DNA of 64,000 nt, from assembly GCF_003790525.1 (NCBI RefSeq), contig NZ_CP033636.1; one strand, given 5' to 3'. Positions 16,621-19,208 of this stretch are shown one piece after another. Numbering within the stretch: the stretch's first letter is position 1; the number at the start of each line of letters is the position of its first letter. The stretch is from Escherichia coli. GTDB taxonomy: Bacteria; Pseudomonadota; Gammaproteobacteria; Enterobacterales; Enterobacteriaceae. A model generated the notes under the pieces. That model made no database searches and was not told where the DNA came from. It was given only the letters and a program-made list of their open reading frames with translations. A program made the translations under genes and the position numbers.

Positions 16621-17352
16621 CTAAGGCTTCTGCTTAGTGAACAGACTTGCCCACAGATAATGGATAAAGTTGAGCAGAATGTATGTTACTCGTTGCTCGA
16701 ATTTCATCGGGGCTTTGTACTTTGTCGTTATGTTGTGAATATGAGTAAGGTCCGTATAGAGCCCTAGCGACTTCCTTGTTGACTTCAACACCGAACAGAT
16801 GTGCTGAACAGACTCCGGTGTGAACAACCGTAGCCCTCGTCGTTGTTTGACTTTATGGATAAAATCGTCCATCCCCATACATAACCATTCCGGCTTGATG
16901 CCATCAAACTTACAACGTCCGTTTATGATGACGACATTGATACATTCCAGTTCTCTAGCCTTAAGAGCAGACTGAATAGCCCTGATGTGCCCCTGGTTTT
17001 GCTTAAACGGGTTCTGCAACTTGAGGGTTCGGGACTGAGTCCATTTCCGCCAGTGGCTTTCCTCCAGAGTACCGTAGAGCTTGCCTACGTAGTTTTTCTG
17101 CTCTATGACGTATATACCATGTGGGGCTACGAGAATGTGATCAACCTGAGTAGTGCTATGAGCCGACAACTGAAAGGTGAGATCACTAAGTAGCCCCTGA
17201 GCTTCTTCAGGAAGCCCAGATTCAATTGCCTTTGCAGTCCGCCGTTCCGCTATGGCAGAGGTCATAAAACCCAACAGACACAGCAACACGACGAAAATAA
17301 GGATAATGAAAGCTACCCCCGTAATGCTCCACAGCAGATTGAAAGCATCCAT
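16621..17352 (-). CDS. NERD (nuclease-related domain) protein with N-terminal transmembrane anchor (243 aa)
   Basis: TM helix then DHILVAPHGIYVIEQKNY...G.....W motif typical of NERD; start 1 nt after upstream gene stop. Confidence 0.55.
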   Translation of the reverse strand: MDAFNLLWSITGVAFIILIFVVLLCLLGFMTSAIAERRTAKAIESGLPEEAQGLLSDLTFQLSAHSTTQVDHILVAPHGIYVIEQKNYVGKLYGTLEESHWRKWTQSRTLKLQNPFKQNQGHIRAIQSALKARELECINVVIINGRCKFDGIKPEWLCMGMDDFIHKVKQRRGLRLFTPESVQHICSVLKSTRKSLGLYTDLTHIHNITTKYKAPMKFEQRVTYILLNFIHYLWASLFTKQKP

Positions 17353-17353
17353 G

Positions 17354-18535
17354 TTACCTCACAGAGGGGTAGCTGGTGGCATTAACAGATTCTACCAAGC
17401 GGGTAGTGGTACCGGTAAGGCTCTCAATATTTGAAGACAGGCTCATCAGCATGCCGAGTGCAGAACGGAGATTACGATGAGGCTCATTGTAGTTTTTGAA
17501 CGTGTCAGTGGAGTACATTTTTGAAAGACGTGTACGGATCTCTACTGACGTAAGATCTCCATCCACCAGGCCGTACTTAACTGCCTGAGGTGTTGGCCAT
17601 ACACGGCCTGAATAGAGAGAAACAGCATCGGCATCATGACGCGAGAGAAGCTTTTTACCCCGTCCAAGTTCAACATCAGTTATAAATTTTTCATGCATCG
17701 TGTTCAGGATCTCCTTCTGCATGAACTCCCTCGTTGAATCGGACAATGGGTGGAAGGGGTCAAGAGCATCTTTGAACTCACCGGCCGTAAGGGGCTCATT
17801 CTTGACGCCTACTGTGCTCATGATCTCTGACAGATTCCAGTGGTCCATACGCACACCGATAGAACCGATCAGGGCATTACTGTCGGCATAAATTGCATCA
17901 GCGGGCGATACCGCGTAATAGCATGCGGATGCGCATATGCCTTTCACACTAACGATGATTGGTTTATATGAGTCTGCGATATCAGAGAAAAAACGACCGG
18001 TACCGCTGGAGAGTACTTCGAGGGAGTTTTGCTTCGACCGTGCTTCATCGCCACGTTCTGTGCTCCCGGTTTTGTTACTCTTGTCAGCGGCTACAGATGA
18101 AAGAGAGCAACCGGCATCTGATACGCGTTCAATCTGTGGCTGGTGGTTTTTAAGCGCGTTTATCTGGCGGTAAATAATGATGGCGTCAGAGGGACCACCA
18201 CCACCTGACTCTGCCTCGATAATAACTGCTTTGGCATGGGGATTATTGTAAGCTTTGGCAAGAGCTGTTGCGATCACTGTTCCATCGCCCGTTTCCGAGC
18301 CGGTACCCATCTCGCCAGAAATCCGTATTACAGCTATATGGTCTTTCTTCCCTTCAGCGTCCTGCCATTGTTCGTAAAGATTGTAGAAAGAAAACCCTAC
18401 AGCGGTCATGGCAATTAGCGACATAGCAACTTTTGCCGTGGTATGAATGCGAAACATCTTATAAAAACGGTCAGCGTTATCATTGAGCGATTCTTTGATA
18501 TTTGTAGGGGACTTCCTTTTTTTACTGCTTAACAT
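17354..18535 (-). CDS. S49-family (SppA-like) serine peptidase with N-terminal membrane anchor (393 aa)
   Basis: Motifs AVIIEAESGGGGPSDA and CASACYYAVSPADAIYADSNALIGSIGV resemble S49 signal peptide peptidase core; AAGGTGG RBS. Confidence 0.5.
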   Translation of the reverse strand: MLSSKKRKSPTNIKESLNDNADRFYKMFRIHTTAKVAMSLIAMTAVGFSFYNLYEQWQDAEGKKDHIAVIRISGEMGTGSETGDGTVIATALAKAYNNPHAKAVIIEAESGGGGPSDAIIIYRQINALKNHQPQIERVSDAGCSLSSVAADKSNKTGSTERGDEARSKQNSLEVLSSGTGRFFSDIADSYKPIIVSVKGICASACYYAVSPADAIYADSNALIGSIGVRMDHWNLSEIMSTVGVKNEPLTAGEFKDALDPFHPLSDSTREFMQKEILNTMHEKFITDVELGRGKKLLSRHDADAVSLYSGRVWPTPQAVKYGLVDGDLTSVEIRTRLSKMYSTDTFKNYNEPHRNLRSALGMLMSLSSNIESLTGTTTRLVESVNATSYPSVR

Positions 18536-18545
18536 CTGACCACCT

Positions 18546-19208
18546 TTACATGAGTTTTTGAAAGTTAGACCACAAGCGATTCAATGCAATTCCCAGTATC
18601 AATAAAGCGACTGGTGGGAAAAGTTGAGCGATATTGTTAAATAGTGACATATTCGGCATGACCAGGTAGACCATCGTTAAAGCACTGATCACCCAAAATG
18701 CTCGAAACCAAATACGATAAAACTGAACTGTAACCTTACCAAATACGTACCTCTTCAATTTCCACTGGTACATTCCATCTGCTAGCATGGCAAATAGATA
18801 GGGCAGAAAAACGATTAGCCACCCCAGGATTAAGTTCCACCGGAAAATGGACTGATAAAGTAAGAGGGGTATGTTTTTGGCCATAGTGTAATTAATAGAG
18901 GTAAATTTTTCAGCAACAATGTTAATACCTCTGGCTGGTTTTTTGGTGTCAGGGATCAGAATAGTATTCAGATAGTCAATTAACTTATAGTCATGTACCA
19001 ACCAATTTAAAGTCGCTTCACTATTTGCAATAACAGACTTCCAACGGTCATTTGATATGATGGACCGGCTTGCATTAACCTCCTGAGTAATCTGATATTT
19101 GAGCTCCTCAGTATTCTGGAAAGCCAGGCTGTAACCAAAATAAATGACCATGCCAAAAAAAAGCATTGTTCTGAGCACTGCTGCTCTGCTTGTATTATCC
19201 GCAGCCAT
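18546..19208 (-). CDS. polytopic inner-membrane protein (about 220 aa), possibly TraJ-like
   Basis: Several hydrophobic helices; start probably the ATG at 19208 (GGAGGG RBS) rather than the track start 19226. Confidence 0.4.
   Translation of the reverse strand: MAADNTSRAAVLRTMLFFGMVIYFGYSLAFQNTEELKYQITQEVNASRSIISNDRWKSVIANSEATLNWLVHDYKLIDYLNTILIPDTKKPARGINIVAEKFTSINYTMAKNIPLLLYQSIFRWNLILGWLIVFLPYLFAMLADGMYQWKLKRYVFGKVTVQFYRIWFRAFWVISALTMVYLVMPNMSLFNNIAQLFPPVALLILGIALNRLWSNFQKLM

Follow-up and report, generated by a model that had tools for sequence, protein, structure and literature searches.

Besides mcr, ESBL and carbapenemase genes, IncHI plasmids bear the multidrug resistance of typhoid strains, and each conserved gene of their transfer operons is for that reason a possible handle on spread. 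In the IncHI1 plasmid R27, the genes R0122 to R0115 are the core genes of the Tra1 'H' (DNA-transfer) operon, which runs traH-R0121-traI-traG-R0118-traJ-R0116-R0115. Its last three members, R0117 (traJ), R0116 ('peptidase') and R0115, are all listed in it, and the R27 expression tables carry the labels '(H)' for R0115 and '(H), peptidase' for R0116. All eight genes rise together on loss of the repressor HtdA (htdA mutant), and in drR27 at 25 °C the increases are 5.6-fold for R0115, 4.7-fold for R0116, 7.3-fold for traJ, 9.2-fold for traG and 11-fold for traI; these measurements pertain to the IncHI1 plasmid R27, not to IncHI2. The searchable literature yielded no experiments on R0115 or R0116 and no published functions for them.

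The locus considered here lies in a 64,000-nucleotide stretch of Escherichia coli DNA (contig NZ_CP033636.1 of assembly GCF_003790525.1; 'the window' denotes this whole stretch), in a record typed IncHI2A/MOBH/MPF_F. Of 979 plasmid records, 977 match the window at 99% identity or more, which makes it IncHI2 backbone. By orthology, by gene order and by co-regulation in R27, its three genes for a NERD protein, an S49 peptidase and a polytopic membrane protein belong to the H operon core. They share the order, orientation and spacing of the R27 operon end and differ in being the IncHI2 allele set; they are the long-annotated end of the IncHI relaxase operon and in that sense already known.

The operon and its distal end

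The operon is encoded on the minus strand and has the eight-gene order of R27. Its first gene, mobI/traH (26278..26763; MobI(A/C) in RefSeq, R27 R0122 = traH), adjoins oriT. It is followed by a 245-aa ORF orthologous to R0121 (25544..26281; from the ORF list and RefSeq, phrog_20548 match 2.9e-105), traI for the MOBH relaxase (22388..25534; 'MobH family relaxase' in RefSeq), traG/traD for the type IV coupling protein (20304..22388; RefSeq annotation of the identical sequence) and a 370-aa ORF whose function is not assigned (19195..20304; from the ORF list, 'hypothetical' in RefSeq, orthologous to R0118), for which PADLOC, NCBIfam and PHROGs gave no match. Then come traJ (18546..19208; 220 aa counted from the ATG, its end at 19208 being the RefSeq start; orthologous to R0117), the S49 peptidase gene (17354..18535; 393 aa, orthologous to R0116) and the NERD gene that closes the operon (16621..17352; 243 aa, orthologous to R0115). 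The ORF list makes these last three consecutive, genuine ORFs.

The start of traJ overlaps the upstream 370-aa ORF by 14 nt; the gaps from traJ to the S49 gene and from there to the NERD gene are 10 and 1 nt, as an earlier sequence-only reading of this DNA had noted (1-10 nt), and Shine-Dalgarno-like AGGTGG and GAGG stand just 5' of the S49 and NERD start codons. A terminator-like hairpin with a U-run (16548..16582, minus strand; RNA fold -18.6 kcal/mol, z -2.9) lies 39 nt past the NERD stop, which fits NERD as the last gene of the operon and agrees with the distal position in the relaxase/coupling-protein operon that the same reading had assigned. A scan for an internal promoter gave no more sites than shuffled sequence, and none can be called.

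The polytopic protein is TraJ: its Pfam DUF4400 profile (PF14348; E 1.7e-12), about four hydrophobic segments and a position 3' of an SXT-type TraD coupling protein place it among the TraJ/DtrJ-like proteins. Its gene is always found 3' of the coupling-protein gene in MOBH elements (synteny in eight element types). In MOBH systems this DUF4400 protein of the inner membrane partners the coupling protein and the relaxosome, and TraJ is essential for transfer in Rts1, SXT and R27 (PMC10838148).

The peptidase matches Pfam Peptidase_S49 (PF01343; E 5.8e-28, residues 188-338) and the PHROG head-maturation protease (S49) family (5.4e-33). Its Ser203 (CASACYY) aligns with Ser147 (AASGGYY) of Bacillus subtilis SppA, and its Lys255 with SppA position 199 (changed to Ala, as K199A, in the proteins crystallized for 3RST/4KWB); both residues are invariant among five plasmid S49 proteins. 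The protein is thus an S49 family member that keeps the Ser-Lys dyad. With SppA (B. subtilis 3RST/4KWB; E. coli 3BF0) it shares the S49 fold region, the catalytic Ser and Lys by alignment, and a predicted N-terminal anchor, but it also has a Ser/Ala/Asp-rich insert of ~60 residues and is plasmid-borne, within a transfer operon. NCBIfam SppA_dom is matched under its curated cutoff (E 4.3e-35), and the SppA equivalogs TIGR00706 and TIGR00705 at 121.2 bits (cutoff 155.45) and 96.1 bits (cutoff 311.45); because the equivalog cutoffs are not reached, the protein is not to be filed as SppA itself. The N-terminus has eight K/R in positions 1-34 followed by a moderately hydrophobic segment, residues 36-54 (KD 1.39), a pattern that suggests an N-in/C-out topology.

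The last protein combines a single strong transmembrane segment (residues 12-30) with a Pfam NERD domain (PF08378; E 1.9e-21). Asp71, Glu84 and Lys86, invariant in sets of 10 and 79 sequences, constitute a D...ExK motif on a restriction-endonuclease-like α/β PD-(D/E)xK fold; motif and fold together make it a putative nuclease-like protein, for which a role in DNA processing is possible. Among its closest structural neighbors are Can2/Card1 and Shedu, nucleases of defence systems. PMC9040797 notes that the function of the NERD domain had not been studied. SmdA of Staphylococcus aureus, described there, has the layout predicted for the plasmid protein: a short N-terminus outside the cell, a single transmembrane helix and, on the cytoplasmic side, a NERD-like domain. 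SmdA is, however, a chromosomal, monocistronic cell-division factor without several of the conserved NERD residues, whereas the plasmid protein retains the full D...ExK motif and is encoded within a DNA-transfer operon.

The sequence-only reading had described all three proteins as membrane proteins, the peptidase and the NERD protein as anchored ones, and the predicted membrane segments agree with this. It had also allowed that the homologues might be ordinary core IncHI transfer genes with known roles, or that the domain assignments might fail. The former applies in part, through the polytopic protein, which is TraJ, a named essential transfer protein; the NERD and S49 assignments stand, being supported by the domain searches.

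Conservation in IncHI plasmids and range beyond them

Whether the three genes are conserved IncHI backbone, a question that the sequence-only reading had left open, can be answered: they are. Orthologues of R0117, R0116 and R0115 are present in every IncHI1, IncHI2, IncHI1B-type and metagenomic-relative locus examined, they are near-universal in ~960 IncHI2 records, and R0115, R0116 and R0118 serve as IncHI core markers. The same eight-gene order is found in IncHI1, in Klebsiella IncHI1B-type plasmids, in metagenomic relatives (NERD 37-45% identity) and at five of 48 loci from species-representative genomes. Protein identity to IncHI1 is 82% for TraJ, 73% for S49, 62% for NERD and 66% for the 370-aa ORF; to the Klebsiella IncHI1B-type it is 49% for S49 and 33% for NERD, and in distant IncHI lineages the conservation of S49 equals that of traJ and traG (49% vs 48% and 47%). 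Between IncHI2 and IncHI1, dN is 0.19 for S49, 0.29 for NERD and 0.24 for TraI, with dS saturated. The gene order has been kept under purifying selection in IncHI1 and IncHI1B-type plasmids. The gap between the S49 and NERD genes stays at 1-10 nt in lineages with saturated synonymous sites, so their adjacency is not chance; spacing of this kind throughout the IncHI lineages could be a sign of functional partnership.

Individual plasmids occasionally have truncated variants and IS insertions in this region. In one IncHI fragment that has undergone rearrangement (locus L019), the NERD copy is detached from the operon.

Beyond IncHI the three genes part company. A word-indexed homologue search returned IncHI-like relatives only, and an exhaustive search of representatives was used for the wider set. 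With the 10-sequence NERD alignment, 48 NERD loci were retrieved from species-representative genomes. An S49 gene lies within 8 kb of NERD in only five of them, all IncHI-type with TraI, TraG and TraJ, and in none of 42 more distant NERD loci. Chromosomal NERD relatives are solo genes in unrelated contexts, members of the S49 clade are found without NERD, and none of the non-IncHI MOBH operons examined has a NERD gene. An autonomous two-gene S49-NERD module is not supported, since among these loci the pair does not recur outside IncHI-type Dtr operons. Nor do the three genes form one module, as they differ in phyletic range: traJ encodes a transfer protein essential to MOBH systems, the S49 gene is optional and NERD is an addition of the IncHI lineage.

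The optional peptidase is seen in the Shewanella and Vibrio MOBH/MPF_F plasmids pHD6416-NDM, pKC-Na-R1 and pNDM-116-14, which have the operon mobI-orf-traI-traD-(orf)-traJ with an S49 gene directly 3' of traJ; its product is 34% identical to the IncHI protein and shares the Ser and Lys residues. Between traJ and S49, seven of eight loci have 8-14 nt, and the Vibrio plasmid has 49 nt. These plasmids differ in having no NERD gene and in that pilin and pilus-assembly genes directly follow S49 (traJ-S49-traA-traL-traE-traK-traB), whereas the IncHI pilus genes are in the separate Tra2, and NERD and a terminator end the IncHI operon. The small ORF after S49 is identified as pilin by NCBIfam (TraA_gammapb, 5e-10) and by tblastn (35-36% identity to annotated TraA); in the Shewanella plasmid it has no Pfam match. 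Aeromonas and Pseudoalteromonas relatives have traJ-traA without S49, and in IncC an S49 gene adjoins dsbA. SXT and Rts1 likewise have traJ-traA and are not known to carry an S49 gene there.

Roles of the peptidase and the NERD protein

The reading that we prefer, with a probability of about 0.6 for the explanation as a whole, takes the three genes as the tail that the H operon has conserved in IncHI plasmids, in which TraJ is accompanied by a peptidase of housekeeping type and a NERD protein with an accessory role. Hydropathy and the positive-inside rule would place the S49 domain in the periplasm and the NERD domain in the cytoplasm; proteins so disposed, on opposite sides of the membrane, would not work together as a nuclease and the protease that activates it, and operon history would account for their adjacency. 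The peptidase would be a facultative accessory at the junction of Dtr and pilus genes, most likely clearing, in SppA-like fashion, the 40-50-residue leader peptides of pilin and T4SS proteins, or damaged membrane proteins, upon pilus induction. Its link with pilin is guilt by association in the relatives: the IncHI pilin gene itself is in Tra2, and none is found within the window. NERD may have joined the IncHI lineage at the point where Tra1 and Tra2 arose by a split of the ancestral cluster. Most likely it would cleave DNA close to the coupling protein while tethered to the membrane, for instance to trim DNA that has stalled at the site of transfer or to remove DNA not wanted there; it is probably dispensable for laboratory mating. 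Our best guess is thus that the protease does housekeeping at the pilus or envelope and that NERD is a DNA nuclease, held at the membrane and not essential. The gain to be expected is a modest addition to what is known of conjugation accessories rather than a new type of system. The picture that results is a sharper view of S49 as a facultative protease at the junction of relaxosome and pilus genes in MOBH/MPF_F systems, and of NERD as an IncHI-specific, membrane-tethered nuclease-like protein retained as long as the relaxase.

The tempting alternative, suggested by the sequence-only reading, is a defence or entry-exclusion module that hitchhikes on transfer-operon expression. In the form considered here, a tethered NERD nuclease, possibly under S49 control, would destroy DNA entering through or near the pilus and T4SS (that of pilus-specific phages, competing plasmids or redundant self-transfer) and would be made only when the donor is exposed. 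NERD domains do occur in defence proteins, the plasmid NERD protein has an intact catalytic motif and Can2/Card1 and Shedu among its nearest structural neighbors, and its gene is co-regulated with transfer genes. It also has a NERD domain in common with BREX PglW, Mokosh MkoA and MADS MAD6 (E 1e-5 to 8e-11 over ~80-140 residues). These, however, are 600-1600 aa long, include kinase or helicase domains and belong to multi-gene systems; such partner domains are missing here. The proteins of the operon tail have no full-length or system-level match among known defence systems (PADLOC-DB with BREX, Mokosh and others, NCBIfam MADS, and PHROGs). PADLOC gives NERD domain-level matches only, at 24 and 21 bits, and gives none for S49, TraJ or the 370-aa ORF; MAD6 is matched at 41 bits against an NCBIfam cutoff of 460. 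The solo chromosomal relatives and the 42 distant loci devoid of S49 also speak against a defence pair, as does a rate of NERD divergence equal to that of the relaxase, which argues against cargo that the plasmid acquired recently. Moreover, EexA/EexB in Tra2 already account for entry exclusion in IncHI plasmids, and such H-pilus phages as are known belong to the RNA phages. Conjugation-coupled defence or exclusion is accordingly judged unlikely, and the 'defence island' reading falls away. Still less probable is its more elaborate variant, an IncHI-specific trans-membrane sensor-effector pair in which the periplasm-facing protease would respond to what happens at the pilus or T4SS, such as attachment of a phage, entry of DNA or damage to the envelope, and cut the short periplasmic tail or the anchor of NERD, releasing or activating the cytoplasmic nuclease against incoming or competing DNA, as a form of immunity or exclusion. 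A protease-activated nuclease was rejected as the main explanation because the two proteins are predicted to have opposite topologies and their genes differ in phyletic range.

That S49 and NERD are instead a dedicated transfer pair, the one processing a T4SS or Dtr component (TraJ, pilin or the coupling protein) and the other serving the relaxosome as an accessory nuclease or DNA-binding protein, is a somewhat better but still doubtful proposition. The S49 gene invariably comes right after traJ where it is present in these operons, and it matches traJ and traG in conservation in distant IncHI lineages; moreover, the two peptidases that Rts1 requires for transfer are a precedent for extra MOBH proteases (PMC10838148). 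Against this stand the Aeromonas and Pseudoalteromonas MOBH systems that have traJ-traA and no S49, and the non-IncHI MOBH operons examined, which do without NERD. The R27 names also count against it: essential genes presumably received tra names and R0115 and R0116 kept numeric ones, consistent with their having no phenotype in standard matings. Nine of the 14 Tra1 ORFs of R27 were reportedly found essential by Lawley and co-workers in 2002, and the probable dispensability of R0115 and R0116 for transfer rests on that report. A dedicated pair would be needed for efficient transfer only under natural conditions (such as low temperature, particular hosts or liquid mating). It is very improbable, finally, that the tail genes are now functionless passengers at the operon end, either in decay or under no selection. 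The truncations, IS insertions and detached NERD copy mentioned above are of the kind that such decay would leave, but the genes are full-length, their catalytic residues are invariant across lineages with saturated synonymous sites, and nearly all of the ~960 IncHI2 records have them.

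Tail of the relaxase operon

The leftward relaxase operon ends in three tightly packed genes on the minus strand, encoding the DUF4400 protein TraJ (18546-19208; 220 aa from an ATG, the start also used by RefSeq), an S49 peptidase (17354-18535; 393 aa in the ORF list) and a membrane-anchored NERD protein (16621-17352; 243 aa in the same list). The TraJ start overlaps the 370-aa ORF upstream by 14 nt, the TraJ stop and the S49 start are 10 nt apart, and a single nucleotide separates the S49 stop from the NERD start; the start codons of NERD and S49 are closely preceded by GAGG and AGGTGG, respectively. 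A GC-rich hairpin followed by UUUUUCUUU lies 39 nt past the NERD stop (16548-16582; dG -18.6 kcal/mol, z -2.9); because its loop is long, the general terminator scan does not pick it up. The three genes are already known and annotated: RefSeq names the products 'DUF4400 domain-containing protein', 'S49 family peptidase' and 'nuclease-related domain-containing protein', in the operon order mobI, hypothetical, mobH relaxase, traD coupling protein, hypothetical, DUF4400, S49, NERD. Between mobI and the relaxase gene, a 245-aa ORF (25544-26281, minus strand), the orthologue of R0121 of the IncHI1 plasmid R27, matches the whole profile of phrog_20548, a phage protein family without assigned function (E 2.9e-105).

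The proteins match Pfam DUF4400 (1.7e-12; currently labeled 'DtrJ-like'), Peptidase_S49 (5.8e-28) and NERD (1.9e-21). The sequence-only reading had thus been correct about the domains, the close packing and the position at the distal end of the operon. In alignment, Ser203 of the S49 protein (CASACYY) corresponds to the catalytic Ser147 of B. subtilis SppA and Lys255 (GEFKD) to SppA position 199, which is Ala in the K199A crystal constructs; five plasmid S49 homologues all keep these two residues and the GG oxyanion motif unchanged. Its score lies under the curated SppA equivalog cutoffs of NCBIfam; it belongs to the S49 family but is not SppA proper. The halves of the IncHI protease domain are separated by a poorly conserved Ser/Ala/Asp-rich insert of ~60 residues (124-188; 17972-18166); the Shewanella protein has a shorter version of it and the IncC protein none. 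The NERD residues D71, E84 and K86 (VDHILV...IEQKN) do not vary among 10 close or among 79 broader relatives.

The NERD protein starts with 11 residues, none of them basic, followed by a strong transmembrane segment (12-30) and AERRTAK, predicting an N-out/C-in orientation with a cytoplasmic nuclease domain. The S49 protein carries eight K/R within positions 1-34 ahead of a moderately hydrophobic segment (36-54), predicting that its N-terminus is inside and its protease domain periplasmic, like that of SppA; TraJ has ~4 hydrophobic segments. On this prediction, the inner membrane would lie between the active sites of the two enzymes.

IncHI backbone

A 4-kb query of the region matched 979 plasmid records (977 are >=99% identical) from Escherichia, Salmonella, Enterobacter, Klebsiella and other hosts, with IncHI2A/MOBH/MPF_F as the typical typing. 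All eight genes recur in IncHI1 plasmids with their order and tight spacing preserved (identity 82% for TraJ, 73% for S49, 62% for NERD), Klebsiella IncHI1B-type plasmids have the set in that order too (48%, 49% and 33%), and the order persists in metagenomic relatives with 37-45% NERD identity. The question left by the sequence-only reading, whether these genes are conserved IncHI backbone, is thereby answered in the affirmative. Between IncHI2 and IncHI1, dS is saturated and dN is 0.19 for S49 and 0.29 for NERD, the relaxase and the coupling protein giving 0.24 and 0.11; S49 and NERD have thus diverged alongside the rest of the operon, under purifying selection, and are not recent cargo.

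The R27 orthologues R0117 (traJ, 'relaxosome protein'), R0116 ('peptidase') and R0115 are all marked as H-operon genes (PMC7366339). At 25 C, htdA-derepressed R27 shows raised expression of the whole set of eight H genes: R0115 5.6-fold, R0116 4.7-fold, traJ 7.3-fold, R0118 8.6-fold, traG 9.2-fold, traI 11-fold, R0121 7.7-fold and traH 11.3-fold (PMC7366339 supplement). In wild-type R27 at 25 C, traH and R0121 exceed their 37 C levels 8-12-fold; R0115 to R0118 have a substantial basal signal without thermoregulation (PMC7366339 Table S3), a hint that the distal H genes may have an internal or read-through promoter. A consensus promoter scan was uninformative on this point. R0115, R0116 and R0118 are in use as IncHI core markers (bioRxiv 10.1101/334409), and TraJ is needed for transfer of Rts1, SXT and R27 (PMC10838148).

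Neighborhoods in relatives

Every MOBH element examined has traJ after the coupling-protein gene. In Shewanella and Vibrio MOBH plasmids, traJ-S49 is directly followed by an ORF of 111-137 aa, annotated 'hypothetical' (L005 8988-9326, L014 10100-10435 and L013 9904-10317 in these loci's own coordinates), and then by traL-traE-traK-traB. This ORF matches the whole NCBIfam TraA_gammapb profile (~1e-9), is 35-36% identical to annotated TraA and has a leader of ~40-50 residues ending in Ala-x-Ala; it is the pilin TraA, making S49 the immediate upstream neighbor of the pilin gene in these plasmids. Aeromonas and Pseudoalteromonas relatives have traJ-traA without S49, and in IncC plasmids a 26%-identical S49 gene adjoins dsbA, apart from traJ: S49 is optional in MOBH operons. 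None of the Shewanella, Vibrio, Aeromonas, Pseudoalteromonas or IncC operons examined contains a NERD gene.

Viewed from the NERD side, among 48 loci in species-representative genomes, S49 lies within 8 kb only at five IncHI-type loci, all five with TraI, TraG and TraJ. At the 42 loci where NERD identity is <=34%, S49 never lies within 8 kb. Neither the trio nor the S49-NERD pair is a module, and the notion of one hitchhiking on transfer-operon expression is not supported. Nor is the TM-NERD architecture itself unusual: TM-plus-NERD proteins of 200-260 aa number 940 cluster representatives at E <= 1e-10.

Solo NERD genes occur in unrelated contexts in two chromosomal relatives and in pAQU1. 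In pAQU1 (L004; 16661-18016 and 8701-9486), the solo copy (32% identity) lies among IS elements, with a SIR2-family gene and a tyrosine recombinase within a few kb, a context that looks more defence-island-like than that of IncHI. On an 856-kb contig of Pseudenterobacter timonensis (L019 8001-8729), an IncHI1-like NERD gene (62% identity) keeps the two small downstream backbone ORFs but has no traJ or S49. Its neighbors are an IS3 transposase and part of a CdiA-like toxin, and the locus looks like a rearranged remnant of IncHI.

Proposed roles and their rivals

Conjugation-coupled defence or exclusion has in its favor the NERD domain, which PADLOC matches in PglW (24 bits) and MkoA (21 bits). 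These are domain-level matches; the other operon-tail proteins have none in PADLOC, NCBIfam MAD6 reaches 41 bits where the cutoff is 460, and defence partner domains or genes are absent. The sequence-only reading stands for domains and position and is not supported for module and defence; the preferred view is that these genes belong to the conserved IncHI backbone and do not form an autonomous defence module (probability about 0.9).

Operon membership, conservation, R27 co-regulation, intact catalytic motifs, fold and relatives' neighborhoods are shown; the rest of the mechanism we infer. In relatives, S49 sits at the boundary between DNA-transfer and pilin/pilus genes, and in IncC beside DsbA, which points to SppA-like support of the envelope or of pilus biogenesis. 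By this tentative analogy, once the apparatus is induced, S49 would dispose of damaged membrane proteins or of the long, abundant leader peptides. For NERD, which may have joined the IncHI lineage at the point where an ancestral cluster split into Tra1 and Tra2, the proposal is more doubtful: a cytoplasm-facing, membrane-tethered PD-(D/E)xK enzyme, co-made with the relaxase and coupling protein, could act on DNA at the transfer site. With the two enzymes predicted to have opposite topologies, direct coupling of protease and nuclease is disfavored.

Nine of 14 Tra1 ORFs were reportedly essential in Lawley et al. 2002, and tra or trh names reportedly went to those; R0115 and R0116 would then be dispensable in standard matings, which is a lead, not a result. 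Besides defence or exclusion, two rivals treat the pair otherwise. One is a dedicated processing pair that transfer would require in natural settings only. Neutral passengers are the other, and the purifying selection on both genes speaks against them.

Elsewhere in the window, an IS3-family element (31933-33146), with a frameshift pseudoknot at 32214-32330 (Rfam ALIL, 121 bits), separates trhH (ending at 31881) from trhG (33203-37156); a reference IncHI2 plasmid has 8 nt between the two. The element might exert a polar effect on trhG and thereby alter how proficiently this plasmid transfers. A 100-aa backbone ORF annotated as hypothetical (14972-15274, plus strand) ends in 13 glycines, a simple repeat that could be length-variable (the opposite strand reads poly-Pro). 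An Rfam AAC_AAD_leader / attI match at 49471-49546 (plus strand, 61.8 bits) indicates a class 1 integron cassette site.
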